From contig NC_089435.1 in NCBI RefSeq assembly GCF_026210795.1, forward strand, positions 4,464,001-4,528,000: a DNA stretch of 64,000 nt, in the 5' to 3' direction. Below the pieces are notes generated by a model. The model was not told the origin of the DNA, made no database searches, and saw nothing but the letters and a program-made list of their open reading frames with translations. Shown in pieces: positions 1,032-34,751 of the stretch. The stretch comes from Rhizophagus irregularis (lineage: Eukaryota). Made by a program: the position numbers and the translations under genes. The number at the start of each line of letters is the position of its first letter. Positions within the stretch are counted from its first letter, which is position 1.

Positions 1032-2255
1032 TTACAAAATACTATTGATTCCTACTCGTAATGCTCGACGGTCCATATGACCCTTAGAAAAGATCTGTAA
1101 AAGGACCCCGATGCCTTCTATTATTTTTTTATTATCCAAAGGGTGACTAGACTTCAGGACTTCATATCGGGAGAATAACTCCTTTACGGTCTCAGGTTTT
1201 GGAATTTTAGTCTTTGTGGTCCTATCCCGTACTTTTGCTAAGAAGTTTTGGAAGTCTGATCCCAGGGTCTTACCAGATAGTCCGTAGGCTTCCCGAAAGA
1301 CGTACTTAATCCAGGTATCTGTGTTCTTAGCTATAACACCGGATACGAGGAGGTGTTTTCTTTCTTTAGGCGATGGATATTCCCGAGCAAACTCGATTAG
1401 CTGGGAGGACTTTTTTGCTTCAGCTACGGCCTTCTGGCCATAAGGACTAAACTTCGATCGAACTGGGTTCAAACTCGGATTGAATGGAGATCGAACTGGG
1501 TTCAAACTCGGATCGAACGGAGATTGAACTGAGATCGAACTAGGATCGAACTGAGATTGATCAGTGATCGAACTGAGACTAGTATCCCATCTAACCCGAA
1601 TAGATAACGGATCGCTCTTGGATCTTCTAAGATCAAATACTATAAATTCACGTTGTAGAGTAAGGTCATCGATTACTGGAGCTAGTGACTCCGATTCTTC
1701 TGTATACTGGCGGATGATCCTCTTAGTATCGGTCAAACTTCCGTGACCTCCATGTAGGGAAATATAATTCACATTTTCACGAATAGCCTTGGGAATGGTA
1801 AAGAATCTTTGGGCCACATAGATACACGAGATATTTTTGTGACGCCCGTGTGTAAAAAATCCAGTGATGAGATCCTGGGTTTTTTTAGGCGCATCCATCA
1901 AATCCTCGAAGATTACCACAGTAGCCTGGATGGAGTTGAAGTCCTTAACATTTGGAATCTCACTATGGGATACTGCGGTAAACGGAATTTCTTCTTCTTT
2001 GAAAAAATCACGTACGACTGCCCACTTCGGTTCATCGAGGTATCTGCCAACTAGAATTACCGCATCACATAATATGTACCTTTCGCCATCCTCCTTTGCC
2101 TTCTTGTCTCCCATTAACAAATTAATGATCATAGTTGTTTTACCCGAATCAGAACTTCCTGCTACGGCAAGACGGAAAGGCCATGATGGGGCAAACTCAT
2201 TACCCTGTCTCGAGTCGGTCGTGTACTCGTCCAAATTGTATACATAAAGATCCAT
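1032..2255 (-). CDS. A32-like (FtsK/HerA superfamily) DNA-packaging ATPase
   Basis: [16 protein letters not shown] (Walker A), VVIFEDL (Walker B), FFTHGRHKNISCIYVAQ (arginine finger and sensor motifs), IPKAIREN; intact 407 aa; C-terminal extension contains 11-aa repeats. Confidence 0.92.
   Translation of the reverse strand: MDLYVYNLDEYTTDSRQGNEFAPSWPFRLAVAGSSDSGKTTMIINLLMGDKKAKEDGERYILCDAVILVGRYLDEPKWAVVRDFFKEEEIPFTAVSHSEIPNVKDFNSIQATVVIFEDLMDAPKKTQDLITGFFTHGRHKNISCIYVAQRFFTIPKAIRENVNYISLHGGHGSLTDTKRIIRQYTEESESLAPVIDDLTLQREFIVFDLRRSKSDPLSIRVRWDTSLSSITDQSQFDPSSISVQSPFDPSLNPVRSPFNPSLNPVRSKFSPYGQKAVAEAKKSSQLIEFAREYPSPKERKHLLVSGVIAKNTDTWIKYVFREAYGLSGKTLGSDFQNFLAKVRDRTTKTKIPKPETVKELFSRYEVLKSSHPLDNKKIIEGIGVLLQIFSKGHMDRRALRVGINSIL
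1455..1580 (-). repeat. 33-bp (11-aa) coding tandem repeat inside the ATPase (SQFDPSSISVQ/SPFDPSLNPVR/SPFNPSLNPVR)
   Basis: Repeated gatcgaactgggttcaaactcggat. Confidence 0.8.
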
Positions 2256-2286
2256 TTGAATTTTATTCTAATTTAGTTTAAATACG

Positions 2287-4459
2287 ATGTCGACACCAAT
2301 TGCAATTTATACTCCTTCAGAGCCTACTGGACCGCTTCCTAGGGATTTGCGTGATATGAATAATATACCATTAGTTGCGGTAATTAAGGATCTAACAGAT
2401 TTTTTAACTGTCAGTGATCGCATGGTTGTTAATCGAGATGTACAAAATGCAAACCATCATCTTAAACATGCTCTTAATTTATTAATTCATCGCTGTAGAG
2501 AAACATACGAAGAACGCGATATATTAAAAGCAGAACGTGATCGATCTCGAAAAGAACGTGATGAATTACAAGATGAACTCGAGGTTCAAACGGGTTTGTT
2601 AGGTCTTACACAAGATGAGCTAAATAACGTACAAGATACTATTACTAGTTTAGAAGCTAATTTGGCTGAATTGGAACGTGAGTTTGGTGGTATGCGGACG
2701 ACTAATCGTCGACTTCAGCAGCAATATAATCTTATGAGAGGAGAACGTAATAGAGCTATAGGTGAACGTAATAGAGCTATAGGCGAGCGTGATGTGGCAC
2801 GAAATCGGCTTGTATATGCCAATAATCGGGTTCTTTTTGGAATTCGGACATTGGGACGTCTTAGGAATCGACTTTTCCAACAAATAGCCGCTCTGCGTAT
2901 CCAAGTACAATGGTTTCGGATTAGACAATTGAACCTTCCTCCACCTCCTCTCAACCATCCACAAAATACGATATGGCTGCCGTTGGTATAGCTGCCCCCA
3001 TATTTCATGGTCGGGAAGATGAAGATCTTAATCTTTTTATTGATAACTTTTTAGGGTATATTAATACCGTTGGTATTGATCCATTGGACGATGCCGGTGC
3101 GCCTCCTGGTCGGGTGCGAGCGATGGGGGTTCTTCGTAGCTGTATGAGAGATGAAGCGGCGAGGTGGTTTGATGCAGAACTTACTGGAAAAAATTGGGAA
3201 CTCTCGAATATTCGGTTAGTGGCTACTGCAAATGGTGGAGCCGGTGCTACTCGCCGAGGCGTTCAGAGCTTTAGCTGTTCCTGAGGTTGCTAATGGATTA
3301 CATGTTGGTACTTACTTACCCGGGTCTGATGTTGATGCATATTCAAGGATTTTAGCTAATGCGGCGAGAACCGTTGGAGAAACATTTTTCCCATCACGCG
3401 CTGATATCGTTAGAACGAATTTTAAAGTTGAAGAGCAGTGGAGGCGTGCGGGCGGACGTCCTACTCATCAACCCGTTAATGGGTTGGGAAATCATGGAGG
3501 TCCATTTAATGCTGCTGTCCAGAATCAACCAATAGTCTTACAGGGGATTCTCCTGGATCAAGCATTTATGCATATGCGTACAAATTTTCCAACCATCGTG
3601 GAAGAAAGACTTCAAATACGATTTAGTAACCTTTACCAGGAACAAGGTGAACCTGTTCGATCTTACTATAAGCGAGTTGAGAGGGCTGGGGATATTGTAG
3701 GATATAATCGAATTATGGTTACTGACCAGTTCTATAGAGGACTTTTGCCGGAAAACGTTATTGAAGCTTCCAGAATCGGGCGGCACCTCTTAATACATTA
3801 ATCGATAGATTGAGTGATCTTGAGCGACGAAAGGGCGAAATGTTCTATGGATTACAAAGGCGTCAGGGTATTGAAAAGGCTAAAAAGAGGAATTGGCTGG
3901 CTATACTCATCCCGTGACTCCACACGAAGGTGCTGTAATACAAAGGTCGACAGACGTTATTACTCAAGAACGATTACAAGAATTGCTCAAGGCACAAGCC
4001 GAGGAACTTACCAAGAATTTCCAGGCACAATTTAAACAATTACAAGCATCTAAGCCAGTTCGTAAACCACCGGTCTATAGACAACAGATTAAACCTGTTC
4101 GGTCAAAGCCACGGCCACGCGTTGTTCAGGATCCTGATTGGGATGATGGTTATGTAGATCATGATTTTGGTGATGACCCTGGTGACCCTGATGCTCCTGA
4201 GTGGACTAGTGAGGATGATCAACATGTTATTGATCTTATTATGGGATATGAGACGTCTAAAAGATTTCCAAAGAGACTTCAGAAGGCTAAAGATAGACGC
4301 GATGATCTGGAATTAGCCTGAGCAATGAGAAACCTCGATCTTAATGATGATGCTATGGATATTGATACTAATACCGCGAGTTTTGATGACTTGAAAATTG
4401 TTCCCGATGAGGAAGGTGGTTTTCGGATTTGTGCGGTTCGAAGTACAAAAAAAAAGTAA
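2287..4459 (+). pseudogene. Coiled-coil + Ty3/gypsy-like Gag capsid polyprotein (frameshifted)
   Basis: Overlapping ORFs 2287-2991, 2973-3284, 3232-3801, 3893-4321. APIFHGREDEDLNLFIDNF...SCMRDEAARWF resembles the CA N-lobe; LYQEQGEPVRSYYKRV...DQFYRGL resembles the Retrotrans_gag major-homology region. Frame continues past TGA 4319 to ...RSTKKK* at 4459. Confidence 0.7.
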
Positions 4460-4522
4460 ACTCGGATAAGGGTGTAAAGTATCTCGAAACTTCTTAAATC
4501 TGTTCCAAAAAAATCAGTTAAA

Positions 4523-5179
4523 ATGACTCCTATCAAGATTCCTGTGAAGGTTACTAGTAGTAAGCCCACACTTATAAAAGCCGTCACCAAAAATGATTCA
4601 TTAAGTTTATTAAGGTCTGCAGATTTTAGGAAATTACTCCGCGAGATTCTTCGGGAAGAATTAAAGTCTGCTCGTAAAAGTACGGAGATTCCGGAAGACC
4701 TAGTTGAGGAAAAACAAGAAGAGGATATCAGGGAAGATGACCCGATGGATATTGACATAGCTCGTTTGGAGAATACTAAAGATCTTTTAGCGCTGGATGG
4801 GAACGTCAATGGGATAGCAATTCAGTGTTTAGCAGACACTTGTGCTAACGCGTCTTTTATTCAGAGGGAAGCCGCTGAAGAATTAGGGTTGGATATCGAC
4901 AAGAGTATTACACATAACATATCCGGCGCTCCAGGTTCTGGTAGGACATTCGGCATGGTAAAAGGTGTGTCAATCAAACTAACCCCTGATTGTGTAATCA
5001 CTGAGAATCTCGCAGTTTTAAGCGATTACAAGCATAGGGAGATTGGATTGAGCCGGACGTGTCTGAAACGTTACAATTATGATGTCCATGAATCACGTGA
5101 ACATATCGCCCTTACTTGTAATGAGAAGAATGTTTTTATCCCGATAGTTTCTGATGTGAATCGAGGAGACAAAAAATAG
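4523..5179 (+). CDS. Retropepsin-like aspartic protease
   Basis: EDDPMDID linker, then LDGNVNGIAIQCLADTCANASFIQREAAEELGL...ISGAPG...EIGLSRTCLKRY; retropepsin pattern with DTC at the DTG position. Confidence 0.8.
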   Translation: MTPIKIPVKVTSSKPTLIKAVTKNDSLSLLRSADFRKLLREILREELKSARKSTEIPEDLVEEKQEEDIREDDPMDIDIARLENTKDLLALDGNVNGIAIQCLADTCANASFIQREAAEELGLDIDKSITHNISGAPGSGRTFGMVKGVSIKLTPDCVITENLAVLSDYKHREIGLSRTCLKRYNYDVHESREHIALTCNEKNVFIPIVSDVNRGDKK

Positions 5180-5193
5180 GGAATATTTATTTT

Positions 5194-6296
5194 TTATTCC
5201 CAAAATTTGCGAATTAAATCGGGAACATCCTCCTCTAATCTACTAGCGGGTTCCCAAGTGGCTTCGGTATCTGGGTATCGTTCCCACTTGATTAGATACT
5301 GGTCTTGACCCTTCCTGATGCGATGCCGGAGTATCCGCTCAGGTACAAATCTTCGGGTTGGCCCTTGCCCTTTATCACGGACTCAAGGTGGGAGATGCTC
5401 ATTTTCTGGAACAATCTGCAACTCTTTTCTTTTCGAGTGTACGCACATCTGGATACACCTAGACGCCCGTGTGGTCCATCAAGAAGATACGTAGGAGGCT
5501 GTTCGGGTGAGAGGATCATTTTTTTGATGACACGGATATTGGGATTCCATCTTATGTCACCTGTACGAAATTTTCCATGGAGTTTATTCCCGAGTACTGA
5601 AATAGGTTCGTCTAACTTGACTCGGACATGTATTCCTTCAGAGAGAAGTTCCGTCTTTTTTGACACCTTGGGTGACCCAGTCGGAATGTCTGGAGGATTT
5701 CTTTGCCAGATTTCATCTATTTTACTAACCACATCATGGAAATCTTCTGACCATTCCACGGATGTCACCCCAGTCTTCAACTCCTGTGCCACCATTCGTT
5801 TTAGGAGAGGTTCCTGGATTGCTTGGATGGCTCGTTCAGGCGTATGATTGCTGTTTGTGTCTTCTGGTTCGCCGAACCTCATCATTACCCCTAGGCTGTT
5901 CAGGAAAAAATCACGTACCTGGTCGTTAGTGAATTCTGATCCGGAGTCTGTCTCTATTCGATGTGTTGGTGGCTTAATGCGATTTCTTCTGTAGATTTTA
6001 ACAAATCCATTGAGAACCTTATTTGCGGTTTTATCCTTTAGGGGCTCTGCATCGACTCGTTTACCCGCGACTTCTACCACTACGAGGAAATAGTGGAATC
6101 CTTTGGGGTCGACTGGCATCTCTGCGAGATCTGCCTGATGCGTCGCATTTGGTTTTCATACAACTACTCGTGGACGCTCTGATGACTTCTCCTTTAGGGG
6201 CTTTTTGTATAGGTTGTAGTGCTCCTCACCTTTTAGAATTCGTGCTGGTACTCCGGAGAGATTGTAGTATTTGTAATAATTCTCTAAATGCGACAT
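5194..6296 (-). pseudogene. rve (DDE) integrase with C-terminal chromodomain, Polinton/adintovirus-like
   Basis: ATG at 6296; HQADL (D1), IETDSGSEF (D2), ERAIQ (E); in another frame the C-terminus reads QYLIKWERYPDTEATWEPASRLEEDVPDLIRKFWE* (chromodomain). One in-frame stop and frameshifts. Confidence 0.88.
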
Positions 6297-6340
6297 ATTA
6301 CGACAAATTAAAGGAAAGATTTTGGACTTCAAATCTTAAG

Positions 6341-6661
6341 ATGACACGATTTTACTGCCTAAAGTGTAAGAAGGAAACCGAGACTGCTAGTGAAATACAA
6401 GATATGACCACAAATGGGCGTTACCGGCTGCATGGTGATTGCACAGTTTGTGGTATGCATAAGAATACTTTTACTGGGATAGACTGGGTTATCAAAAAGA
6501 AAACCAAGGAGAAGAAAAAAGAAACTGCGGCTAAAAGACATCAGACGGCGTACAATCGGCAATGCAAAAAACTCGGGCAGAAAATCTTAGATTCTGATGA
6601 CACGTGTAAGCAGTGTATTGATAAATGCCTTAAGGAGGCAAAAAAGAGGAAGACGGATTAG
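6341..6661 (+). CDS. Small Zn-ribbon protein (DUF5679-like, seen in Polinton/adinto-like elements)
   Basis: MTRFYCLKCKKETET...NGRYRLHGDCTVCGMHKNTF; the likely start is ATG 6341 inside ORF 6023..6661. Confidence 0.7.
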   Translation: MTRFYCLKCKKETETASEIQDMTTNGRYRLHGDCTVCGMHKNTFTGIDWVIKKKTKEKKKETAAKRHQTAYNRQCKKLGQKILDSDDTCKQCIDKCLKEAKKRKTD

Positions 6662-6670
6662 TACCGCCTT

Positions 6671-7186
6671 CTAAAAGTATTCCTCATCATCTGAGTCATC
6701 GAGAGATACCTCTCCATCATCTGATTCATCATCCGAGTCGTCAGGAGTGCGACCTTCCTTAAGCAATTGGATGTTGTACGTTATTTGAGTCCATTTCTCC
6801 CAGTCGGACTCTTGCGTTATAAAGCCGCATCTGAGGAGTGCTCTTTCTATTACTACCATCCCTGCAAACCTGGTGTATTTTTTCTGATCGGCTTCATTGA
6901 AATTGTCAATGGCTTCTTTGTAGTAGTCTACTGCCTGTTTGTATACCTCTTCGGCTTCTTTATGCCGCTTCCACAACTCGGCTTTACAACAGTTATACCA
7001 GAGTCTGTTAATCTTGAGATGTTTTCCGAATTCTTTAACCGGAAGGTTTCTGACCATCTCTGCTACTATGTCCGGGTCATTGAGGGGTGATGCCTGAATT
7101 TGGATCCATTTACGGATTCCATAGATGTCTACAAGATCAAGCCCGAGGTCTTCGGCAAGAGAAGTGGCGGCGTGTAAGTTTATCAT
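6671..7186 (-). CDS. Hypothetical protein with acidic tail
   Basis: Intact 171 aa ORF converging on the Zn-ribbon gene with a 9 bp gap. Confidence 0.6.
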   Translation of the reverse strand: MINLHAATSLAEDLGLDLVDIYGIRKWIQIQASPLNDPDIVAEMVRNLPVKEFGKHLKINRLWYNCCKAELWKRHKEAEEVYKQAVDYYKEAIDNFNEADQKKYTRFAGMVVIERALLRCGFITQESDWEKWTQITYNIQLLKEGRTPDDSDDESDDGEVSLDDSDDEEYF

Positions 7187-7251
7187 TGTATGTTACTTAT
7201 AGTTACCTAATCTTCAATTGCCGAATATATTTTTTCTGACGGGGGTAAGTG

Positions 7252-7560
7252 GTCATAGTTCGGGTGCCATAGTTCGGGTGCCATAGTTCGGCTGCCATAG
7301 TTCGGCTGCCATAGTTCGGCTGCCATAGTTCAGGACATAGGGAATCATACTTGGAGGGTCTAGGTGAGTATATAAAGGGTAATCATAGCGTGAATCGGGT
7401 TTTGGGGTCTGAGGGGCTGACTAAGGCTGCCATAGTATTATTATAAGATTTTTCGTACTATGGCAGGTACTATGGCAGGAGATTCTGTTTGATTTCGGCT
7501 TTATTCACGTTTTTATTCCGTTTTTAAGTAGTCTGCCATAGTTGCCATAGTTGTCATAGT
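7252..7560. repeat. Subterminal 14-bp tandem repeat (GCCATAGTTCGG(G/C)T, about 6 copies) plus dispersed GCCATAGT/ACTATGGC motifs
   Basis: Tandem copies at 7252-7340; the core recurs in both orientations at about 7428-7560. Confidence 0.9.
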
Positions 7561-8086
7561 AAGTTATATATAAGAAAAAATGTAGAAAAAAAATAAGTGG
7601 AAAAATACCGTGGCAGACTACGCGTACTGCGGCAGGTAAACCTGCCCCACGGAGGGGGGATGTAGGTACTGCGAGGCCGTTGAGGCCGAGGTGGAGGAAC
7701 GTAGTGACTACACTACCAGCCCGACGACTCTGAATACATAATCTGGCTACTACACTATAATCTACCCCTTTTATTTTGATGCTATCTCTATTCACATTCT
7801 AGCTATATTTTTATACCTTTCTTGATATCTGTATTTTTCTCTTATGTATGATTTTATTATCACGTTATAATCTAAATACCCCACACTTTAACCTAGGTAC
7901 CTCTTTTTTCTTCCTGTTTCTACTCTATTTGTAATTTAAGTTATATATTGTTGATACTGACCTTTCACGTCTGATTGAATGTCAAATTCTATATTGAAGT
8001 ACTTACCCTTTGTGCCTATTTGGTTGCCTTTCTAGATGCTGAAATGTGGTAAAAAAATATGGTGTCGAGTGGCGCAGTATTTCGAT

Positions 8087-8360
8087 GTAAATCTGCGATT
8101 AATTTTGGCTGGACACTATGTCATAATTCCAGCCGATCTTTTGGGCATGTGATTTGAGGATCCAGCCTGGCGCCATGGTAGTGACCTGATAGTGACCTGG
8201 TAGCTACCGTAGAACTGTCATGGAACTGGCAGGGAACTAGAGTGGTTCTATTAGTTTGCCAGTTCCAGTTCACTTTTATGCCAGCTTGGATGCCGAAATA
8301 TTACCTAAAGTTCTGGCTGAAATTATGAAATAGTGCTGGCCAAAATTAATCAAAATTTAC
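8087..8360. repeat. Long imperfect inverted repeat (fold-back), arms about 80 bp
   Basis: gattaattttggctggacactatgtcataattccagcc pairs with ggctgaaattatgaaatagtgctggccaaaattaatc; inner pair ggaactggca/tgccagttcc. Confidence 0.8.
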
Positions 8361-8402
8361 TACACATCATTTTTTTTTTCTAAAATGGATGTTGCGAGTA
8401 GA

Positions 8403-8760
8403 TACGTATATTGTTAGGAGTGTCATATGATAGTAGTCCCAGAGGGCTCAGTGACAGGTGATTCTTTACGCATATATTGTTAATTTATTGCGCCTAAAGT
8501 TTTTGTGATACTCTACGCATATATTGTTAGAAGAATCATATGATAGTAATGCCAAAGGGCTCTGTGTCAAGTGATACTCTATACACATATTGTTAGGAGA
8601 ATTATATGATAGTGATCTCAGAGGGCTCGGCGTCAGATGACATCCAGCACAGTATCAATTCAGGGATATTCTATTAGTTCACCCACCATGAATGCCAAAT
8701 TATTGTATCCAAAAATCTTGCTGAAATTATTGTTAACTTACTGCGCCTAAATTTTTGATA
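8403..8760 (+). repeat. Degenerate ~65-bp tandem repeats
   Basis: Unit like atattgttaggagtgtcatatgatagtagtcccagagggctc…gtga in three copies; attgttaa-tta-tgcgcctaaa-tttttg occurs twice. Confidence 0.75.
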
Positions 8761-8945
8761 TCACGTGGCCAGGCTTTAGTCTTCCCTTTTCGCAACTTTT
8801 AAGGGATATTTGAGAAATATTTGAGTGGCATTTGGGGTTTGGGCTAGTGGATCATTTGGTTAGAGAATTGGAGGTGCCAACTTCGTATCTCTTTTTGGTA
8901 TACCTTTATATTACGTGAAGGCTATATCATACCCGAGTACTTATC

Positions 8946-9005
8946 TAAAAATGAAGCCTTCTGCCATTTTTATATAATATAATTCCGCAAAAGGCTTCAT
9001 TTTTA
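8946..9005. other. Hairpin/palindrome: 19-bp arms (1 mismatch), 22-nt AT-rich spacer
   Basis: TAAAAATGAAGCCTTCTGC-cattttt atataatataattcc-GCAAAAGGCTTCATTTTTA. Confidence 0.9.
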
Positions 9006-9140
9006 CAGATATATCTGGATGTCTTTCTTTTACATTTCTCCTACTAAGTTCGCTATCATTTCTTTTTGTATTTATCGAAAAAAAATAATTAAACATTTCC
9101 GAATTTTATAAAGTAATATAAACATTTTCAAACTAACAAC

Positions 9141-12100
9141 ATGCATACACCAACTAATTTTGACCAAACTGATCACACCGGAACTCTCACCCGCTACGAC
9201 AGCGCCAGCCCTTTAGCTGGTATCCCATCACGTAATGATATTGTGGCAGAATTCGATAATGGGATGACCACTATACTTCAACAAAGCCTATCCGGCAAGC
9301 AACCCATACATTTCATGCCTACTGAAGTTAGTGATGATATCGAGGGGTATTCCTCCTATATCTTGCATATCACTGGTTCTTTGATTAATAGGCAAAAGGT
9401 GGTCGTGAATATCACAGCATCCGACCATTCTTCGATGTTGAAGTACCTGAAAACTATTCCCCCTCTTCACTTAAGACCATATTAGCACGCATTTTATCAG
9501 TTACACTCAAAAATACAACAAAATTTGGGGTTGAGGATATTCGTGCTTTTCCACTTCAGGGTTATTATACAGAAAAGAAAGCATATATCCGTATAAGAAC
9601 GTGGAACTACTTTGATCGGTATAATGCCCTAAAAGCAGTTCGTGAAGTCGGCATTCGTACAGTCTCAGATGATCTAAACTGCCAGTATTATTACTGCAAA
9701 GTAGCTCGTGAAGAACGATTACCTCTTTCAAGCTGGGCCGTATTAAGCAATTATTTATACGAATTCATCCCAGATGGTACTTACCTATTTCGACTATCTG
9801 TGGATAATTATAATCCAATAATATAAGTGAGGACAATTATAATAATCCATTATTCTCCTCAACACTTACGAGGGATCGAACCCTCATACTCACATGGGAT
9901 ATTGAGACATATAGTTCACGAAAAACAGGCGAGGTGCCTAACGCAAAATATGATGAAGACAGAGTGTTTATGATTTGTATGACAGTGCATTGGAAAGATG
10001 ATCCCGAACCGTTAAAACAAATCTGTCTTGTCGATGTTGAAACAGCACCAGAGCCAAGCTGAATCACAATTGTATGTGGATCCCAGACAGATTTACTAAA
10101 AGCATTCGCTTTATGTTGGAAACTTCTAGCTCCGGATATACACATAGGCTTTAATGATTCTCAATACGATTGGTGGTTTATTGTAGAGAAAGCTAATAAA
10201 TTAGGAGTTCTCGAATGGATGTTCAATCATATGTCATTCAAGCCATCGAGCCTGGAAAAAATTATAAAATGGGAATATCGATATAATATGATAAAAGTAA
10301 ATGATGGAAAATTCCATTCGAAACATCTTAAAATTCCGGGATGTGTAGCTATTGACGTCCGACCCTGTTTTATGGGAATTTATTCTAAGGCTGAAAAGAG
10401 TAGTTTAGCATTTTACCTAAATGAATGTGGGCTCGAAAGTAAAATGGATATGCCTATTCACCGCATGAACAAATATTATGAAAGGGCATTAAAAAAGCCA
10501 GATTCCATGTTGGCCGAACAAATGCGCGAAGTGGCCAAATATTGTATTATCGACGCTCTTAGTTGCCAGCGGTTAATGGTAAAGCATAATGCAATTAATG
10601 AGTATAGAGAGGTGGCATCCATAGCCTTCTTATTATTATTTGATGCACATTATTTTGCGGGAGGTATGAAGGTTTGCAATTTTTTAAGTGCTAGCGCATG
10701 GCAAAGAGGGATCCTAACCAGTATGATTTCAAGCCAACAAACAGAAACTGGAAAATACCCTGGAGCCTATGTTTTCCCACCAGTAAAGGGTCTCGAAAAT
10801 AGACGTCCTGTAACTGGTTTAGATTTCGCATCGTTATATCCGAATCTTATCATAATATATAACCTCTCACCCGACAAAATCATTTTATCTCAAGAGCATG
10901 CCATATCTGTAGAACAAAGCGACAAAAAGCTTCATAAGATAGAGTTTCTATTTAATAACAACCCCTAACGTGCCTGGTCAGTTCAGCATAACAATATTTC
11001 TGAAGAAAAAGGACTCTATACTAGCGTATTGGAATATTTATCAGGTAAACGAAATGAGATGAAGAAGCGTCTTGCACCTTTGAAAGAGAAAAAGGAAGAC
11101 ATGGACTTGGTAATAAGTTCAATGGGTAAAAGTTTGTCATTATCAGAAGCCATCGAGCAGATCTTAGCGAATGCAGAGGTAGAAAAACATAACGGTTTTA
11201 CTAAAAATTTATATCATTTTATTCATAAAGAAAAGCATGAATTCATAGCAGAATATGATTCTATTTGTTTCGACTGTTCTTGTTTGGATAAGAAACAATA
11301 TGCTTTCAAGATATATATGAATTCATTCTATGGTACGGCTGGAGATAGTAAATCCCCTTCTTCTTACGTGAACTTGCTGGGGGTGTTACTTCGGCTGGAC
11401 AGAGAAATATCAAACTCGTTGCGGATTTCGTCAAGAGAAAGGGATTTAGGATAAAATATGGTGATACGGATTCCTTGTATTTAGTCTGTCCAGAAGAACG
11501 CTTCCAGAGGTGTGATGAGGCTTATGATAGTGGCAACGGGATCTCAAAAGAAGAATATTGGTCTCGAATGGTAGAAATCTCTATGGTGAAAATGGAAAAA
11601 CTTCGTGATGAAGTTAATGACTTTCTCAAGGAAGATAACGGATCCCCTTATCTTAAAATGGCATATGAGGAAGTCTTATTTCCGGTAGTATTTACTGGAA
11701 AAAAAAAATACTATGGTATCCCGCATGAAAGCAAGCCGAACTTTAATAAAAAGCTTTTCATTCAGGGAGTTGAGGTTGTAAAGTGGGGGCAGTCTAAACA
11801 CTTTCGTGGGATGGGTAAGAAGGTCATGGAAGAATCTATGAGACTGGATAATACTCGCACCTTGCATCAGATTGTGGAGAACGTGCTTAAAGAAACCATA
11901 AATGATATTCACAGATAGATCTTAATGGGGTGATTAAAACTGCTGTATGGAAGCCTGATAAGAATAACAAGAGTGTCCAGCATTTTATTTCACAAATGCG
12001 AGACAGACATACTCGTGAAGAAGCAGATGCCAAACGGCTCATAAAAAGAGGGCTAACATCTGAGCCTTATCTTTATGAAATCCTAGAACCGGGTGAGCGT

Positions 12101-12937
12101 TTTGAGTATGTTGTAGTTGAGAATGATTCATCAGATAAGGTCGGAAATAAAATGGAGTATCCAGAAGTAGTGAGGCGATTAGGTAAAAAGATCAATATCA
12201 GCTATTATCTGAAAACCGTCGTCAGCCTTTGTGCACGATTTATTAACTATGATGAAAGTTTCCAGCCATCATCTGAAATTGTGCTGGAGGCCTTAAAAAA
12301 GTTGAAAGATGCTAATAAAGCGGGTGATAATAAAGCGGATGACGGTGGGGTGGATGGAAATGACCTGGATGAAGACGAAGAAGATGAAGACAAAATGGAT
12401 GAAGATGAGGTATCAAAAATAAGAGATGCCTTAGCGCAGAAATCGGCTGAAAAGTGGATTAAGGGGTATATCAAAAGCCTACGTGATGGTCCGAAAAAAG
12501 ATAAAACCATCATATCTCATTTATGGGAAGGGGCACGCATTTACGTGAAAAAAATATTTGATACTACTTATGCCGACAAGGGAGAACACCTAACTAACAA
12601 TGCTTATTACCAATCATTCCTCAATGCGCTAGATAAGCAAGAAGAATCCATCCGCTTAAAACTTTCATCATTGCTTAAAGAAATTTCTGAGGTTGATATA
12701 GAGTATAGAGACAGTATGTATAAATTAGTTACTAAGAAGCGAGCAATGTCCTTAGAACAATATTTAATATCATATTATTTGGATGAGTGTAAGCTACTAG
12801 CAGATTTCTGAAACACATGGTACAAAGTAGTTGGCCTAGAAATTATACGCTATCGAACATTATCGAAGTTACAGGATGACAAAAAAGATGATTCGTCCAA
12901 AGCGGATATAGACGAGATCATCGAATTATATGGATAA
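9141..12937 (+). pseudogene. polB: Family B DNA polymerase, nucleic-acid-primed (Pol delta/NCLDV, asfarvirus-like type), intronless and disrupted
   Basis: Exo[10 protein letters not shown], ExoII IGFNDSQYDW, ExoIII YCIIDA, region II RPVTGLDFASLYPN, region III KIYMNSFYG, region [16 protein letters not shown]; several stops and frameshifts. Confidence 0.93.
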
Positions 12938-12950
12938 ATACTCTTAGCGG

Positions 12951-13481
12951 TGTTAACTGATTCAGTACGTTGAATAGATTAACTATGATTTGCAGTCAGG
13001 GAGATTAAGTACGTTTAACTATGACTGAAATCCAATCAAACAAGACACGCTTAAAATAGGGAGTTCGTTTATAGTGTAAAAGGTTATACTTTATTATAGA
13101 ACTTTATAATTACAAGAATAAGAACTAATAGGAACTAAGGTTAACTAATTCGAACTGAAGGAACTTAACTTATAACGAGGGAAAATACCAACGTTATTTA
13201 TATAAAAGTTACTACATATAAAGATATAATAAATATAATAGATATAACTAATGTAATAAATATAACTAATATAATAAATATAATAAATAAATTAAATATA
13301 ATAAATAAAATAATTATATCGATTATATTAAATATAATTAATATAATAAATATAATAGAAATAATAGGCTAAGGAGGCTGCGGCTAGGTCGGCTTGGCAC
13401 AGTTGGGTACAGTAGATCCTAATTTTCCACATGATCTTCTGGCGCAGTAAGTTGTAACTCTACACGTGACTAGGGGTAACA
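12951..13481 (-). mobile_element. Solo LTR (TG...CA) with 4-bp TSD GCGG
   Basis: gcgg|TGTTAAC ... GTAACA|gcgg (12947-12950 and 13482-13485); internal TATA-like and AATAAA motifs on the minus strand. Confidence 0.75.
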
Positions 13482-13586
13482 GCGGGATGTGGCAATTTCA
13501 ACTAAGAATACTTAGCCGTTAAGGCACTTCGCATAATAAAATTTACATATTTTTTCTCGTGTAATAATACCGGCTAACTTCAATTT

Positions 13587-14645
13587 CTATCTTCGAACTT
13601 CTGGCCTCTGATCATAAATCCCAGCCTCAGAAATGTTCGGAGACGATAAAAAATAGTTCCAATTAGGAGAATACTTGGTATTACTTTTTTCTTTCGGCTT
13701 AGCACTCCACAAATTCCATATTTTTTTCCCAAATACGAAGTACATAATTGCAATCAGTAAAAAGATAAGTATGGAATATATTATCAACGGCGACATCAAG
13801 GAGCTCGCAACGATAGGAATAGCTGATGGTAAAGATACCGTTTCTGCGCCATCTACAGAAATAATTTGAGATGAATCATTCATAGGCGGGGGTGGAGGGG
13901 GTATTTCATTATTTTCCTTCAATTCTAACTGGTCCCTGAAGGACCTATTTTCCTCCCTTAATTTTGATCACGCTGAATACAAAGCATCTATTTCCCGTCT
14001 AAATATGCTATTTGATGACTCTATCCTCTTTTCCATACATTCTATTGTATATTCTTTTGAATTACGGTCCTCCTTCACCTGTTCCAATTCAAGCCTGAGA
14101 GAATCAATCTCTTTAGGATCGGATAAGCTTATTTGGACTGGCTCCTCTATCACCTCTCCCATTACATCCAAATCATGATATGTACGCTCTAGATCTATGT
14201 CCTCCAACTTACCTTCCAATTCACGTATTTTAGTTTCAAGAGAAAGAATCTGGACCTTGTCAGCGGATGAAGCTTTCTGGGCCAAAGTCGCCTTTCTCTT
14301 CAGTGTTTTAATCTCTGATTTGAGCGATTGGATTTTAGCAGTATATTTGACTTCAAGCTCACGTTGACTTTTGGAATGAGACTTCCGTTCAGAAATAAGT
14401 TGGGATCTAACCTTAGTACTGGACGCGTTTAACTGGCTAGCTTTATTTTCAAACTCCTTTTCTCGCTCATTGTACTTATCTACCAGCTTTTCGCTGAGAT
14501 CATTAATTTCGGCTTTAGATTTAATAGCAGAATATAATTTTTCTTTAAGCTCTTGCTCATATGTACCACCAAGTCGTTGTCTGACCCCCTTAAAGGAATC
14601 ATTATCTTTATTATTGATATTTTTCAAGATATATACATTGGTCAT
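13587..14645 (-). pseudogene. Coiled-coil protein with polyproline and a C-terminal transmembrane segment (one premature stop)
   Basis: ORFs 13968..14645 and 13587..13922 are in frame across TGA 13968 (…LYSA*SKLREENRSFRDQLELKENNEIPPPPPP…LIIYSILIFLLIAIMYFVFG). Confidence 0.65.
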
Positions 14646-14707
14646 AGCCTTTTTTTTTCGGCTTAGTTGCTAATATAAAAAAAATGTGTCTAAAAATTTC
14701 TGGACTG

Positions 14708-14860
14708 AATCTACCGAAAATATATCGATAGTACTGAATACACCGAATATACCGAATATATCAGATGGATCGAATGTACCGAATGTACCGAAAATAAATC
14801 GATAATATCGAACAAAAATCAATTGAATATCGAAATTATATCAAAAATACACCGATAATT
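14708..14860. repeat. Cluster of ~9-bp (T/C)ACCGAATA-like motifs between divergent genes
   Basis: caccgaatat accgaatata…cgaatgtaccgaatgtaccgaaaat. Confidence 0.65.
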
Positions 14861-14916
14861 TTTCGAAAGATTTTTTTATATCTATCTGTAAAAAATACTT
14901 CGGTATCTGCGTTCAG

Positions 14917-15350
14917 ATGCAACCTCCCTATCAGCTGAAGATATTCAGGATATTATTAAAGCTAAAAATTCAATGAAGCGAGCATCAGAAGCTATGGCTA
15001 ACAAGTACAAAATATCATCACGACGGGTATATCAAATATAAAGAGGAGCCCATCCACAAATAGATCCTAAAGACATAAATCGATTTTCGGAAGAACCTGG
15101 TTCGCCTCAGCAAGCAGACCCTGTGGAATGTAATGTTATTTCTGGAAGTAAGGTAAAAAAGTTTGGAGGAAAAAAAACTAAGTCTAAATCCGTTCGTATC
15201 TCTGAGTTACCTGTTATTCAGACACCACTAGCTTCAATAAGCTCAAAAAGTTTAAATATAAGCAATGAGGAATTAGAAGCATTTTGTGAGAAAGAAGATA
15301 AGAGAGGCGAAAAAATCACAGAAGAAATGAATAGGATACTAGCCACGTAA
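14917..15350 (+). pseudogene. Small putative HTH DNA-binding protein, disrupted
   Basis: LSAEDIQDIIKAK...SEAMANKYKISSRRVYQI*RG resembles a helix-turn-helix and runs in frame into ORF 15123..15350. Confidence 0.4.
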
Positions 15351-15463
15351 AAGATATTTTTCATTTAGTTCATTATAACGTAATAACAACTCCTCACATA
15401 ATTCATTGAGATTTTCTTTAGACTTAAGAGTGTTATATAACATTCTTTCAAGTTCCTCATAAC

Positions 15464-16279
15464 TCACTTTTTTTTTAATGTCTCATTCGCGCTCAAGTCC
15501 ACTTGGTCCGGAATCGAGGATTCATCACATTCGGGAGTAGTGGTTATACAATTCACCTCGAGCTTGTTCTTGACTTTGTGCATGGTGACTGGAATAATTA
15601 AATCCTTACCGTTATGAGAAATCTTTAATTCATCTTTGTCCCAGTCAATTGCACATTTATATTTCTTAAGAAGAGGATTCGAAAATATTAGCATTGGCTT
15701 AGAGTATTTTACAACTATAAAATCTTCATATATAGTAAATCTAGGAGCTAAGGTTATCGGTAAATTGTGGACGACTCCAATAGATTCAACTGGCACAGTA
15801 GCAATACCACTAAGATCATGTTTTATGGATTTGTCGATTCTATATCCTACGCGTTCAACAATATCAGGTGTTATAATGGGAAGTTCGGCACAAGAGTCCA
15901 GTGCCATAGCTGGAATTTTAAGACGCTTAATCTTGCATTTTATAGATGCAATGCTTGTGGTGGGCTCCTTCTTTTTGACGAAATCTATCTCCATAGGTCC
16001 ATCCAAAACATCCTCTTCATCTGAATCTTGAGCTAAGGCAGGTGCACACTTTTTAGCTTGCTGAATTATGTACGGAAGATAATTCTCAAATTCAATTTGA
16101 ATGATTTTGCGAATAGTTTCTTCTAAAGACACACGCTTACCATGACTATTTTTATCTGATGAGGCATTATGGGTAGAAGACAAATTATTGTCTTGCTTTA
16201 CCTTACGAAGATCATATTTATTAGACACCTTAGACTTTGAGGATTTATCAGAATACTCACGTTGCTCAGTGTAATTCAC
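15464..16279 (-). CDS. Retropepsin-like aspartic protease (in the -1 frame relative to the upstream Gag-like ORF)
   Basis: DGPMEIDF linker; KIPAMALDSCAELPIITPDIVERVG...LSGIAT...MLIFSNPLLKKYKCAIDW. Confidence 0.82.
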   Translation of the reverse strand: MNYTEQREYSDKSSKSKVSNKYDLRKVKQDNNLSSTHNASSDKNSHGKRVSLEETIRKIIQIEFENYLPYIIQQAKKCAPALAQDSDEEDVLDGPMEIDFVKKKEPTTSIASIKCKIKRLKIPAMALDSCAELPIITPDIVERVGYRIDKSIKHDLSGIATVPVESIGVVHNLPITLAPRFTIYEDFIVVKYSKPMLIFSNPLLKKYKCAIDWDKDELKISHNGKDLIIPVTMHKVKNKLEVNCITTTPECDESSIPDQVDLSANETLKKK

Positions 16280-18687
16280 TTTTTTTTTCTATGACTTATG
16301 TAAATATTCATATCACGATTTCCGGAGTCTGAACCGGCTGATGAATTATCAGAGTTATAATCATTGTCCTCAGGTTTTGATATATCATCATCAGAAAAAA
16401 TGGGATCAGACTGTTCATCTACTGTAGCCATATGAACTCGACTACTTCTGGATTTGGAATCTTTAGCGAATTTAGCCAATAAGGCTTCGATTTGTCCTAA
16501 TCTTTTTTCCAATCCTCCAAAAGGTGAGGACTCTGAGCGTTGTCGCTATGGTGTTTTGGTATCTCTGGTATCTTTTCTAGCAAATTTAGCTAAGTGGGCT
16601 TCAATTCGTTCTAATCTTTTTTCCAATCCTCCATTATTATAGTCTGAGAATTCTGAACACTGATACTGAGCTGATTTGGTATCTATGGTATCTTCTCTTA
16701 CGAGTTTGGTGAGTTTGGCTAAATTAATTTCGATTACTCCTAATCTTTTTTCCAATTCTTGATTAATATAATTATCAAAGATTGAAGCATTATTTGAATT
16801 AACTACATTTTCTGATAGCTGTAAACGTTGGGCAAGTTTAGAATGCACCTGCATTGATTCCGCTAACTATGCCTCCAAAGAAGCTATTTTGGAATTTAAC
16901 TTTTCAAAATTGGCCGAGACTTCATTATTCTGGGAGTGTAGTACTTGAGCCGGTTGTGTTAGTTGTGCTTGTAAAGAGGCTATTTGGGAATTTAATTTTT
17001 CAATTTCAGCTGAAGAATTATTCTGATAATTTTGGCCTCCATTTAAATTGGAAGCACGCTCCAGCCACATGTCTTTTAGATTTGTAAAAAATGCATTAAT
17101 ACCAGCAGGAGCGATAGCCCGCATCTATGTATAAAGATTACCTGACAAGTAGTTCTTAAGAAATCCTATAGTTTGTGCATCACCATCCGCTACACCTAAT
17201 AATAAAGGTCGGATTCTTTTTTCATAAGTATCTGGCGTGTCTGAGGGTAGAAATTTTTCTTGAGTTAATCTTTGAAGTACCGACTGCCGACTACCTACTG
17301 TTTCTCGTTGATAATGTGATCTCATCCAAGCACGTAAAGTAGCTGGAGAATTAATATTAGCATTTCCATTATATGGATCTTGGGCAGGAACTGGTAAATA
17401 TTTTCCTCCCATCTGAGCTTTAAAAATATCACATTTGACAACATCATCGAAATCTCCAGTATTTGCATTTTCAAGAACAGTCATATGTTCTTGTGCAAAT
17501 GATATTGATTGAATAAGTCTATCTAAATAATCATCAGGAGGTTCTTGGCCTATATAGGGCTTAGTTTTTGCAAGAACCGGTGCAATCATAGTTAATACTG
17601 GTAAACGTCTAGCATCTGCCATATTTCCTAATGGGTTATTCTGAAGCGCCAAAATTTGTCCCTGCAAATTTAAAATATTCTGGTTTCTTTGCCTAATCAC
17701 TAGCTGGAAAACAAACTTTTCACGTAGCAATCCACCAATGCGGGTTTGTTTTCTTGCTATAATAACTAACATCCTATTTACCTGGTTTTGGGCATTGGTT
17801 TGCAACTGTCAGGTATTTTGCTGAAGACGGTTAGTATCTCGCTGATACAATAGCTGTTTAGCAAATTTTTCTCGCAATAATCCTTGGACACGCCTATTTT
17901 TATCCTGATATGAAAACATCCAGTGACGAGATTCTTGTCTCTCATTATTATAGGCCAGCATAGCCAAGTTCTGCTCTCCTTAAGCATTATCTTTTTCCCT
18001 TACAGTTCTTTCAGCCTGAGCTCGGGATTCATTTAATAACTGCTGGAATCGCAGATTTTCATTTCTCATATCCCTTAACTGCTGTATAAGAACCCATTCC
18101 TGCTCATTTGTTTCGTTTAATATGTTCTGATATTAATCCCGCTCAGTTGTGGCATTTTGCAAAGTAACCCAAATAGTATTTAACAAGCCCCTGATACCAT
18201 CTAAAATATTAATAGGATTTGGCAGTAGTGTACCGGCACCTCTAATATGATTTTCAATCTGATCTAACCCTCTGTTAATATTTCCAATAAGATCAGCTGT
18301 TGCCATATCTAAAGCATTTATTGAGATTTTTTTATTTATGAGAATCCGGATTCTTGCCTTAAGACGTTCTACCTTATTTTCAAGCTCTATGATTCGGCCA
18401 TCTTGAATAGACCTAACCTCATCTTTGAATTTTTTATCTTGTTGTAAGATCCTAAGCTGTTTTCGCAAATCAGATATTTCCGATTTAAGTTTCTCTACCT
18501 CTTTTTCATGGGCTATGATAGTATTATCCTGTAATGAGATAGTTTGATAACATTGCTCTAGCTCCTTCACAAGAGAACAAAATTTTTTCTCATTACTTTT
18601 ATTATTGGAAATTTCATCCTGAAGCTCACTACGAAGCTCCTGGTTTGTATCTAAGAGTTGTGAATATGCTGGATCGAATGTTGACAT
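16276..18687 (-). pseudogene. Coiled-coil + Gag-like capsid polyprotein with internal repeats
   Basis: Collinear ORFs separated by single stops; KPYIGQEPPDDYLDRL and LQRLTQEKFLPSDTPDTYEKRIR are Gag-like; LEKRLxxIExxLAK repeated three times; ends …SHRKKK*. Confidence 0.65.
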
Positions 18688-18737
18688 GATATTATTCAGC
18701 CCTGATTTATAGAACCATCATATAATCGTGTTTAAGA

Positions 18738-20395
18738 ATGAGTCAACTGCAGATTGTAATAAATCCCGATGAAGAGCTCCATATAGTCTGTAGACTTCTG
18801 TTTTATAATATACCTGGCTTTTATACCAATGCCAAAAACCTATATAATGCATACCAGAAAGAAGGATATTCTTTTCGATTGTGAGATATTGCAAAGTGGT
18901 TAGTGTATCAATATATCCATCAAATTTATCGACAACCACTACCATGCAAAGCTGAAGCAAGTTTTTCAAAGATTAAGATTCCAAACAAGGTTCAGCAGTG
19001 TGACATTCTGCTCCACACTCACGATGATCAGGATGGTAGAAGGATATTCGTTTATACTTTTCTAATCATAGATGTGGCAACACGTTTTAAGGACGCACGC
19101 TCAATAATATCGAGAAATAGTTTAGAAATCTGGAATGCGATAAAAGAAGTATTTGAGGATCTTTCTAATCCTCTCACATGGCCAACATTATTAATGACTG
19201 ATGGTGATGCTTCGTTTCGGAGTGCATTCTTTTGAGAAATGCAACAATACAATGTCCCAATACGTGTTGTCGACCTTTATAGTTTTGAGAGCTTGGCTTT
19301 GATTAAAGCGTTTAAGAAAAGAATAGCAGAATTAATATATAAAGTCCAATATGCTATAGAGGGACGATTAACTGACGGAGAGCGATCAAGACTATGGAAA
19401 AAAATTCTTAAGAAGTATATTGATTATTTGAATAACAGTAAGACACACCTTATTGGGATGTCTCCAGCTCATGCTATGACTTTGGAAGAAGTTAAATCAA
19501 AACCTTCTAGGAAAGCTAAGCGCACAATTGGAAAAGATGAGGAGATAAAGTTACAAAAGGGTACAGCGGTTAGATATTTGTTAAAACCAGGTGAATTGGA
19601 AGGAGACCATAGGCGTAGAGCAACTGATCCATACTGGAGCTTGCGTGTCTATAAGATAAAAAGAGTTGTTATTAGGAAGAACCCGCCACAGCCAATCTTA
19701 TACTATCTTGAAAATGGACCTATTGAATCTACTGCTCATTTGATGGGACGAAATCCCAAAAGACCTTTCAAATTTGAGGAACTTCAAGTAATCGAGGAAC
19801 CTGATAAAATCAAATATCCACCAGATGAATTTATGTGGAAATATTATCCTACTGAATTCGTTCACTATGTTCAAGTTGCTAATGATAAATTGACTAAAGC
19901 CGATCAATATGCTAAGAAGCGTGGTGGCCATTGTCTGGAAAAGACCGGGCGAATAAATGGACATAATGTATACCTCTGGTCCTGTGAAAATGGTGTGCAT
20001 CAATGGGAGTATCTATTAAAGTATATCATGAAAAAATTTGAGTGGTGTCCTCTATGCCACCATACTACTGAAAGAAATTGCCGATACATTTTTAAGGATT
20101 TGCTAGGCAAGAAATTCCCATCCTGCAGACCATCATTTTTGAATGGAATGCAATTAGATGGTTATAATGAAGAATTAAAATTGGCTTTTGAATATCATGG
20201 ATCCCAACACTATAGTCTTAATTCAATGTTTCATAAGAGAGGCCAGATAGATTTAGATGAACAAAAATCCTGAAGCGAGACATATGTAAGCAAGAAGGTA
20301 TATGTCTTATCTCGGTGCCCTACACATGTGACCTTTTTCCCTACATTAGGTATATGCTAATCAAAAAGGGATATTTGGATGATGCAAGTGGGTAA
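18738..20395 (+). pseudogene. Polinton-type rve integrase fused to a Zn-ribbon + PD-(D/E)XK-like endonuclease domain
   Basis: N-terminus LFYNIPGFYTNAKNLY...AKWLVYQYIHQIY; QQCDIL (D1), LMTDGDASF (D2), [25 protein letters not shown]; then [10 protein letters not shown]...[10 protein letters not shown]...WCPLC...[21 protein letters not shown]; stops near 18886 and 19233, frameshift near 20270. Confidence 0.85.
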
Positions 20396-20481
20396 CCCAA
20401 TCTATTGGGCAAAGCATTTATTGCCAGAACTTGAGAAATTGTTACATTATTTTTCGATATAATAATTAGTTGGATCAAATC

Positions 20482-21261
20482 ATGAAATACGTAATATTCG
20501 CAGCGGACGAAGTCAAGCCCTCGAAAAAATATCAGGGTGATCTTCATGCACCGGCATGGCCTTTTCGAATTATAGTTGCAGGGGCTAGCAATTCGGGTAA
20601 AACGAATATGATTCTAAACCTGCTGGTGATGAACAAATTTTACTATATGTTTAGGAAAAAAAAGAGTTCTAAAATAGGTGAGCGCAATGTTAAATGCAAT
20701 GACGTGATACTTTGTGGCCACCATCTTAACGAGCCTAAATATAGAATTGTTCGAAACTTTTATAAATATCTTGCGCAAGATAAATCCAAGCCATACTATT
20801 AAGATATTACATTCTCTACACTCACTCCTGATAAAATTCCAGATCCAAAAAAGTTCAATGTTAAAAGAAGTAAACTAACGATATTTGAGGATGTCTGCTC
20901 AGACCCTCCAGCTATACAGAAAAAAATTATTCCATATTTTAGTAGAGGTCACCACGAGAATATTTCTTCTATTTATGTCTCACAAAAATTTCACAGGATT
21001 TCTACGGATATTCGTGAAAATGCAACGCATATTGTACTCTTCAGTAGTGGAGGTTCAACCCGAAAACTTGCTAACATTATAAGTCCTTATACAGATGCTG
21101 ATCCGCACAAAGCTTCAAAGGTCATCGATGGTTATTTGAAATAAAAGGAATTTGTGGTCATCGATATAAATAAACCGAGATCTGAATCCTTTTCACTTTG
21201 ATGGGACACTCCGCTCAATTTGGAAAAGGAAATCGAATCGTTGGGCAATACTTCCAACTAG
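20482..21261 (+). pseudogene. Second A32-like packaging ATPase, disrupted
   Basis: APAWPFRIIVAGASNSGKTN; read-through gives TIFEDV, YFSRGHHENISSIYVSQ, DIRENA, EFVVIDI; three in-frame stops. Confidence 0.88.
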
Positions 21262-26213: not shown

Positions 26214-26705
26214 CTAGTACAGTCCTGATTTTGCTACAATCCATTCACTCGAACTAGATCTAATATCAGCAATAACAATTGCATGATCTTCAACTGCCAC
26301 AGGTTGCTTTTCAGGAATAGTTGCAATTTGTGTGTCACTCTCGTTCAAAGCGAAAAGTTGAGGCCTAATAGATTCCGGATCAGCTAATACAAAGTATAAC
26401 CTGTCTTTATTATATAACCCGTCTCCATTATATTGGACAGCAAGCCCTCTTCTAACATTAGTAATAGTATATCCGCCGGTGCCTTTTTCTTTTTTAACAT
26501 ACCATCGCTGATCTTGATTTACATCATCAAGATTGCAGAGACCAATTCGATCAGCAAATACTGTCCAATAATAATATGGAGCTTCCTTCTGTTGAATGGT
26601 ATAGGTTCCATCTTGAACAGCATCTATAGTACCACTAAAAGAACTATTAAAAAAGTAAGTATTAATAATAAATAATTAGCAAGAGAAAAATTTTACTTAC
26701 GACAT
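26214..26705 (-). CDS. Two-exon 144-aa beta-trefoil / ricin-B-lectin-like protein (not in the ORF track)
   Basis: Exon 1 ATGTC 26705-26701, intron GTAAG…TAG 26700-26644, exon 2 26643-26214: MSSFSGTIDAVQDGTYTIQQKEAPYYYW…NQDQRWYV…GGYTITNVRRGLAV…SSEWIVAKSGLY*; QxW motif. Confidence 0.7.
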
Positions 26706-34230: not shown

Positions 34231-34751
34231 CAAGATTTTATAACTTTACTTACTATAAAGGACTGAAAGAACTGAAAATTTTAGACCAAAAAAAAAAAGA
34301 CTTATAATATGGTAAAAAAGAACAACGTTTCGCTCTGCAATATAATTAATTCGTGAATGTCGGTATCGTTCTTAACCCACCACACGATGCTGACCCGCAT
34401 AATATATTTTAATAAGGGTCAAGATGATGTCACCAGAAGGGTCAAGTCCAATATTTTTGCAACTAAATCATTTGAGCGAATTACCAAAATGGACGGACCG
34501 CGTGATAATTTTCTGGTTTCGCTATAGTAAAACCCGATTAATATTAATTTTTCATTAATACCCTGTACAATTTCCTATCTTCACATGCCATTAAGCAATA
34601 ATAGTCTATTCAGACCGGACTAATATATGAAATTGTACATATTAAAAGCTCTTTATTCGTCGATTTTGACATTCATAAATAGGCTATAAGATACATACGT
34701 AGAAATTCTCAAATTTTTCATTGAACGCTTCGATCTTACTAAAACATAATC

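Follow-up and report, generated by a model that had tools for sequence, protein, structure and literature searches.

Why should two gag-like genes on one fungal contig both end in nine adenines, each with a protease gene just behind it? We addressed this question in a 64,000-nt stretch of the Rhizophagus irregularis genome (contig NC_089435.1, positions 4,464,001 to 4,528,000 of the forward strand; hereafter the window), which carries two gag-protease cassettes. All coordinates are positions in the window, position 1 being its first letter (Table 1). Recoding between Gag and protease is textbook biology in retroelements, where it is ribosomal and mostly driven by RNA structure. Here the same stoichiometry problem is apparently solved by a bare nine-A run (A9), twice in series, in an element that is replicated as DNA. 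Access to the -1 frame at A9 is very probably programmed, be it through the polymerase or the ribosome, and both may contribute. The reading that we favor, at a probability of about one half, is that the run is a programmed slip site at which host RNA polymerase II (Pol II) adds one A to a minority of transcripts.

Conservation of the nine-A junction

The initial annotation, made from the window sequence, described both Gag-like frames as ending in nine A's, a G and a stop codon, encoding KKK*. Both do, and in the -1 frame each site reads KKKVN. It also put the cassette-2 protease exactly in the -1 frame, and that frame is indeed open from the A9 tract through the aspartic protease to the stop at 15464, a total of 274 codons. 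In cassette 1 the -1 frame closes 18 codons after A9, and a further 1-nt indel near 4495 had been proposed. The indel exists, but its position was wrong: we place the frame break in the A3 at 4476-4478 because homologous peptides (P0126, P0134 and P0135) read KKKV.S.KG[VIL]SISK. The base at 4476 is absent from the covering contigs of DNA runs X1 (2/2) and X5 (2/2) and from 15 contigs of X12 (depth 22,869 of 35,149). The extra base is thus private to this copy or to the assembly, and the register of the cassette-1 family is -1. For this family the evidence comes only from contigs of DNA runs, together with protein ends. Three DNA runs list no indel within the cassette-1 tract itself, 4447-4455 (3% threshold; runs compared over 4300-4700); depth in run X18 is only about 2 at the junction. 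For cassette 2, a 2,420-nt contig of run X1 (which may have been the source of the window) shows zero differences from 15423-17842.

How general is this arrangement? One metagenome scan, drawing on many samples, yielded 78 loci of the cassette-2 family. The junction is covered in 45 of them; the other 33 comprise L023, with a deletion across it, L035, with unrelated upstream sequence, and 31 loci that do not reach it. The Gag frame of each locus was set by reading translations and checked by the lack of upstream stops. Relative to Gag, the protease stands in the -1 register in 41 of the 45 loci, in +1 in three and in frame in one (L034), which has an additional frame break just upstream in gag. 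In a protease tree of 38 rows (9 rows were without a usable core), each of the four off-register loci stands as a lone tip surrounded by -1 relatives. Had the tract been a homopolymer error, as the initial annotation recognized, most copies should hold Gag and protease in one frame, and a single locus in 45 does.

The run itself is A9 in 37 loci, A10 in four, A8 in two, and A11 and A7 in one each; the four A10 runs arose by G-to-A substitution, with the frame kept. Of the A9G unit that had been described as conserved, A9 stands, while G is too narrow, the next base being G in 35 loci, C in seven and T in three. A role for this G was rejected, as G, C or T follows the run at both of the sites considered here. 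The commonest codon phase is nnA AAA AAA AAN. Across the loci, the run is preceded by a codon for G, E, A, S, T, I or L, and in the window by one for R or T; this codon ends in A in all loci except L052, L059 and L068, where the run sits in another phase, ATT AAA AAA AAA TAG; it still has nine A's and the protease is still in -1.

Lysine content does not account for this pattern: among 35 distinct Gag tails, in which AAA makes up 174 of 324 Lys codons, nnA AAA AAA occurs in 0 of 92 other Lys-Lys pairs. Past the tract, the -1 frame is free of stops over 90 nt in 37 of the 41 loci, and the other two frames in 0 and 1. Spacers from tract to protease measure 225-387 nt (40 loci), and 18 of the 22 distinct lengths are multiples of 3; the remaining four are single loci, one base off. 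Coding-strand A-runs in the 78 loci number 69 A7, 34 A8, 93 A9 and 13 A10, against 85 T7, 42 T8, 6 T9 and 7 T10. Aligned copies and DNA runs agree in the conservation of tract length and -1 register. At the sequence level, both are held across diverged lineages beyond chance, and this conservation would mean that Gag and protease are co-expressed under selection in these elements. The C-termini of Gag homologs, clustered at 50%, are for the most part truncated or spliced and lend weak support: a KK motif closes 2 of 25, and about eight more end a few residues past a KK run that follows an acidic tract.

A second A9 run, which the initial annotation missed, lies at the end of the cassette-2 protease, where the -1 frame leads into a 45-codon open reading frame (ORF3), a likely coiled coil that starts KKKVSYEELE. 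At this site 2 the register is -1 in 56 of 68 covering loci (including L052), +1 in seven and in frame in five. The run is A9 in 50 loci, A8 in 11 and A10 in seven, followed by G (25), C (22) or T (21). ORF3 has a rough ratio of nonsynonymous to synonymous polymorphism (pN/pS) of 0.5 (25 sequences) and shares 14 of 30 residues with the coiled-coil gene further downstream, whose start it resembles. The end of the cassette-1 protease has no A-run of at least seven. Stop-restart at site 2, suggested by an AUGA overlap in some copies, was rejected, for GTG, TTG, ATA and GTA stand there in others. In L026 (about 1062-1173) the -1 frame past site 2 encodes a C2H2 zinc-finger-like peptide in place of the usual ORF3, with A9 kept in another codon phase. 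Shortly before the ATG of the coiled-coil gene lies a further A9 (14658-14650, minus strand); it is A7 in L038 and so probably not a slip site.

Polymerase, ribosome or neither

What, then, is the signal? The initial annotation pointed to heptamers of the X XXY YYZ type, known to drive -1 ribosomal frameshifting. Heptamers in register are present in the -1 loci and at both window sites, as is a joined open -1 frame (41/45 and 56/68 loci), but the 3' stimulator of classical signals, 5-9 nt downstream, was not found, the G is dispensable and the run occurs in two codon phases. Mean folding z-scores downstream of site 1 are -0.07 (50 nt) and +0.22 (80 nt; n=20 for both), and downstream of site 2 -0.53 (50 nt, n=23) and -0.21 (80 nt, n=21), in each case like control windows. 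A simple scan for H-type pseudoknots gave 0/20 at site 1 and 0/24 at site 2. Because no 3' structure was found, the A9 run itself appears to be the signal.

Why might the polymerase be the one that slips? One added A gives exactly the -1 frame, and the retention of A9 in two codon phases with a free following base fits RNA-polymerase slippage at least as well as it fits the ribosome. Unslipped mRNA would encode Gag with a terminal KKK, a message lengthened by one A would encode Gag-protease, and slippage at both sites would yield a rare Gag-protease-ORF3; slippage would thereby hold the Gag:protease ratio high for a retro-type capsid. Slipped RNA would not return to the genome because the element has a family-B DNA polymerase (PolB) and no reverse transcriptase was seen. 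By analogy with bacterial insertion sequence (IS) elements, slippage at the transcript level may thus cost the element nothing: in a retroelement such slips would become fixed in the genome, in a PolB-replicated element they would not.

There are precedents. Bacterial RNA polymerase is described as slipping efficiently on runs of nine A or T, and Thermus thermophilus dnaX and IS elements as using A9 or T9 transcriptional slippage (PMC5009743). The fungal sites share with these and with Shigella spa13 a nine-base run and partly overlapping reading frames, and with IS elements replication as DNA (PMC5009743). As in programmed transcriptional slippage generally, a conserved homopolymer of about 9 nt lies at the overlap (A9 in 37/45 and 50/68 loci, in two phases). 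Unlike the bacterial cases, the fungal element is eukaryotic and nuclear, and presumably transcribed by Pol II. For Pol II, one human patient is described in whom A10 transcripts came from a genomic A9, with frame-restored dystrophin at about 15% (5 direct-RNA reads), and about 11% is cited there for APOB A8 (PMC12946587). Both the DMD and the APOB case are accidental rescues of disease alleles (PMC12946587). If slippage in the fungal element is transcriptional, it would be selected and productive Pol II slippage, a phenomenon that the literature consulted shows only as accidental rescue (PMC12946587).

Several observations weigh against this reading, some of them in favor of the ribosome. Two runs of polyA RNA yielded 2 and 3 reads for cassette 2 and a single run 0 for cassette 1, with no read spanning a site. 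Gag-pro probably derives from a long terminal repeat (LTR) retroelement, a class whose frameshifts are ribosomal. The register is kept less strictly at site 2 than at site 1, with seven loci in +1 and five in frame; four protein records of the cassette-1 family (P0164, P0234, P0135 and P0142), taken alone, read other frames at the junction; and the loci are related and many are decayed, amounting to 20 non-redundant junction flanks and 11 clusters at 80% protease identity. The usual phase, the prevailing one both at the two sites and in the distant cassette-1 family, contains a pair of perfect heptamers that overlap (A AAA AAA and A AAA AAN), a stop follows 0-2 codons after site 1 in the 41 -1 loci, and ribosomes are described as sliding on consecutive AAA codons (PMC4363877). 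All three suit ribosomal -1 frameshifting without a 3' stimulator, in which tRNA-Lys would slip on the overlapping heptamers, aided by slow poly-Lys decoding and the adjacent stop. A AAA AAC, reported as highly shift-prone for mammalian ribosomes (PMC5009743), is found in 7/45 loci at site 1, and C follows the run in 22/68 at site 2; two successive -1 shifts are also on record, in mouse mammary tumor virus (MMTV) and the human T-cell leukemia virus HTLV-1 (PMC7075266). However, neither hairpin nor pseudoknot was found, the form that most site-1 loci carry, A AAA AAG, is described as a site favored in Escherichia coli (PMC5009743), conservation extends to the first three A's, which a single heptamer could do without, and nine A's are kept after a change of phase. 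We regard ribosomal slippage as a close rival with a chance short of even; in that case it would be a poly(A) frameshift that occurs in nature without structure, such as cells usually avoid.

Could the two frames be joined without any slip? Alternative splicing from the GT after the tract would connect gag to the protease as NCBI gene models do. A donor-like GT stands at +0 or +3 in 42 of 45 site-1 loci, and the long Gag-Pro proteins found, 79 in number, are without exception NCBI eukaryote gene models, which skip the junction. None shows a continuous KKK-V junction, the one match to a pattern for it (P0245) being itself without the linker start. Yet GT is forced by AAG plus a stop and is missing in 3/45 site-1 and 34/68 site-2 loci, the supposed intron keeps an open -1 frame and has lengths in multiples of 3, as coding sequence would, the models join near-identical copies at differing points, and A9 is left unexplained. 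We hold splicing to be highly improbable and suggest that false introns carry many public gene models across the junction. Phase variation at the DNA level, whereby replication slippage in a many-copy, multinucleate host would create rare in-frame copies that supply protease in trans, draws on the in-frame and shifted copies that do occur at both sites; as the site-1 exceptions are isolated tips, L034 carries its further gag break and the three DNA runs list no tract indel, it is very unlikely. The chance of a sequencing or assembly error in the homopolymer, or of neutral decay of a single gag-pro frame, is practically negligible. Both window copies are pseudogenes and the window holds 27 A/T runs of at least nine, but the same length and register recur in short-read-derived contigs and in 41/45 loci, and A-runs spike at nine where T-runs do not; the family data refute this explanation.

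Set beside the MMTV and HTLV-1 gag-pro-pol genes with their double -1 frameshift, the fungal system is alike in its retro-type capsid, a CCHC zinc knuckle in many relatives, a protease in -1 and two serial A-rich sites. It differs in having no 3' pseudoknot or hairpin that we could find and a nine-A run whose last base is free. Its third reading frame is a 45-codon peptide and not pol, neither reverse transcriptase nor LTR was seen, and it carries PolB, an A32-like ATPase and a separate integrase. No prior description of these A9 sites was found in the open literature, supplements and subscription journals aside. The recoding design is real, conserved and apparently undescribed.

Gag, capsid and protease

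Is the upstream gene a true Gag? Both window copies are decayed, which the initial annotation did not mention, and probably make none of the products discussed above; in gag of cassette 1 the frame is broken at about 3220 and at 3800-3880, and translation would end early near 4319. The capsid region of the intact relative L052 was modelled with a predicted local distance difference test score (pLDDT) of 90. Against the C-terminal domain of the PEG10 capsid protein (CA), VIA-align gave Z 10.8 with a root-mean-square deviation of 2.3 over 80 aligned residues, and against Copia CA Z 9.1; Arc, Ty1 and retroviral CA also match. The top 36 VIA-align rows are all retroviral or retrotransposon CA or derived domains. 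Foldseek ranked the same families first, yet with no E below 0.001, and a sequence search of the capsid region against the PDB gave no match. On the strength of the L052 model, the upstream reading frame is a true retro-type Gag with a two-lobed capsid fold.

Many Gag relatives have a CCHC zinc knuckle; at its place in the cassette-2 Gag tail (16455-16770) stand three repeats of about 56 nt, the GLEKRL repeats. The retropepsin D-[ST]-G-like motif is DTC or DSC in the window and DSG in many relatives, and the cassette-2 protease carries PMEIDF at 15997 and LDSCAE at 15901. In both families an M-x-I-[DY]-x motif, a candidate protease cleavage site, follows an acidic tract where Gag ends and recurs where the protease begins (15997 and 16310 on the minus strand; 4742 and 4355 on the plus strand). 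The window proteases share 94-98% identity with proteins of Rhizophagus irregularis and 25% with each other. Relatives occur in R. clarus, Diversispora, Entrophospora, Gigaspora, Cetraspora and Paraglomus. Neither a viral contig collection, searched with both proteases and both alignments, nor a genome contig collection gave a relative.

The carrier element

Which element carries the two cassettes? Cassette 1 sits between an A32-like ATPase and an rve integrase. The element of cassette 2 spans 9195-21231 in the order A32, integrase, gag-pro, small ORF, coiled-coil gene and PolB, as pieced together from loci L045, L043, L022 and L053. Relatives of PolB, A32 or integrase occur in 11 of the 13 loci of at least 3 kb. 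The best PDB match of PolB is 8ywg (1206 aa, E 9e-235), which we take to be the African swine fever virus polymerase; its PDB matches form one 1206-aa polymerase group, followed by Pol delta and archaeal PolB.

Table 1. Coordinates of the cassettes, the putative slip sites and the adjoining genes in the window
Feature	Position	Strand	Details
A32-like ATPase adjoining cassette 1	1032..2267	-	Pox_A32 E 3e-10
Gag-like gene, cassette 1 (coiled-coil, capsid, tail), decayed	2287..4459	+	Retrotrans_gag E 0.0019, below cut-off
Putative slip site 1, cassette 1	4447..4459	+	ACA AAA AAA AAG TAA; A9 4447-4455, G 4456, TAA 4457-4459
A3 with one base more than other copies	4476..4478	+	X1, X5, X12 contigs; homolog peptides
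Retropepsin-type aspartic protease, cassette 1	4478..5179	+	Asp_protease_2 E 5e-8; LADTCAN motif at 4829
rve integrase adjoining cassette 1	5292..6155	-	E 1.5e-8
Family-B DNA polymerase, several broken frames	9195..12931	+	PF00136/PF03104 type
Coiled-coil gene downstream of cassette 2	13707..14669	-	
Small conserved ORF facing ORF3	14907..15350	+	Relative of L022 158-aa ORF
ORF3, 45 codons, likely coiled coil	15339..15476	-	-1 frame after site 2
Putative slip site 2, protease end	15478-15464	-	TTA AAA AAA AAG TGA; A9 15476-15468
Linker and aspartic protease, cassette 2, open	15464..16288	-	-1 frame; Asp_protease E 7.5e-4, below cut-off
Putative slip site 1, cassette 2	16276..16288	-	AGA AAA AAA AAG TGA; A9 16288-16280, G 16279, TGA 16278-16276
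Gag gene, cassette 2, 803 codons, decayed (6 internal stops)	16276..18687	-	Capsid region 17622-17038
Integrase-family gene upstream of cassette 2	18735..20377	+	59% to L068 rve protein
A32-like ATPase, cassette-2 element	20473..21231	+	Weak Pox_A32 matches

Unlike an LTR retrotransposon, the element shows no reverse transcriptase among the 72 ORFs scanned and no LTR-like direct repeat in window positions 1-26000. It resembles Polintons and elements related to MELD (PMC8502044) in combining PolB, an rve integrase and an A32-like ATPase in a 10-20 kb cassette, and a Gag/retropepsin-bearing element is named there: the Fig. 5 legend of Starrett et al. 2021 on MELD-related elements lists "Matrix/Capsid/NC/Pro" (PMC8502044). 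The available text of that paper describes no recoding site. In contrast to Polintons/Mavericks, PolB here belongs to PF00136/PF03104 and is not protein-primed. No jelly-roll capsid was matched, and no convincing terminal inverted repeats were found in 1-34000, where the copies are decayed and the element of cassette 1 may run off the window. Gag-Pro belongs to a conserved set with a PolB of about 1200 aa of the RNA-primed type, an A32-like ATPase and an integrase, possibly a DNA virus or transposon with a retro-type capsid.

Such an element has a bearing on an older observation. R. irregularis genomes hold 15-33 Asfarviridae-like polB copies in variable places (Zhao et al. 2023, PMC10640383), and polB was read as a trace of giant-virus infection both there and for the fundsbetaviruses of Gong et al. 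2020 (PMC7017919). Neither main text mentions gag; that of Zhao et al. mentions no integrase, protease or frameshift either. An element of the cassette-2 type is the likely source of these scattered asfarvirus-like polB genes, which would thereby gain a likely identity. Taken as a whole, our proposal, tentative and a little short of even odds, is that a widespread family of Glomeromycotina DNA elements combines an asfarvirus-like replicative polymerase, an A32-like ATPase, an integrase and a retro-type Gag, and that Pol II stutter at two A9 runs, as a conserved and programmed form of slippage, sets the ratios of Gag to Gag-protease to Gag-protease-ORF3.

Some further features were recorded. 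Next to the intact gag-pro of L052 (7256-9259) lie an F-box-like gene and a second integrase. An A10 within PolB (11699-11708, plus strand) lies close to a frame change and could reflect either decay or a slip of the assembly. A three-copy repeat of about 70 nt (8402-8661) and a 9-nt AT-rich tandem array (13206-13375) lie near likely element borders, and a DUF5679 gene (6014-6661, plus strand; E 2e-17) adjoins the cassette-1 integrase. Elsewhere in the window are a 480-aa ORF with a weak match to reovirus VP3 guanylyltransferase (50945-52387, plus strand; E 8e-5), a CACTA-like Transposase_21 ORF (34743-36263, plus strand), a protein kinase ORF (42852-43676, minus strand) and a beta-trefoil lectin-like ORF (26214-26675, minus strand).

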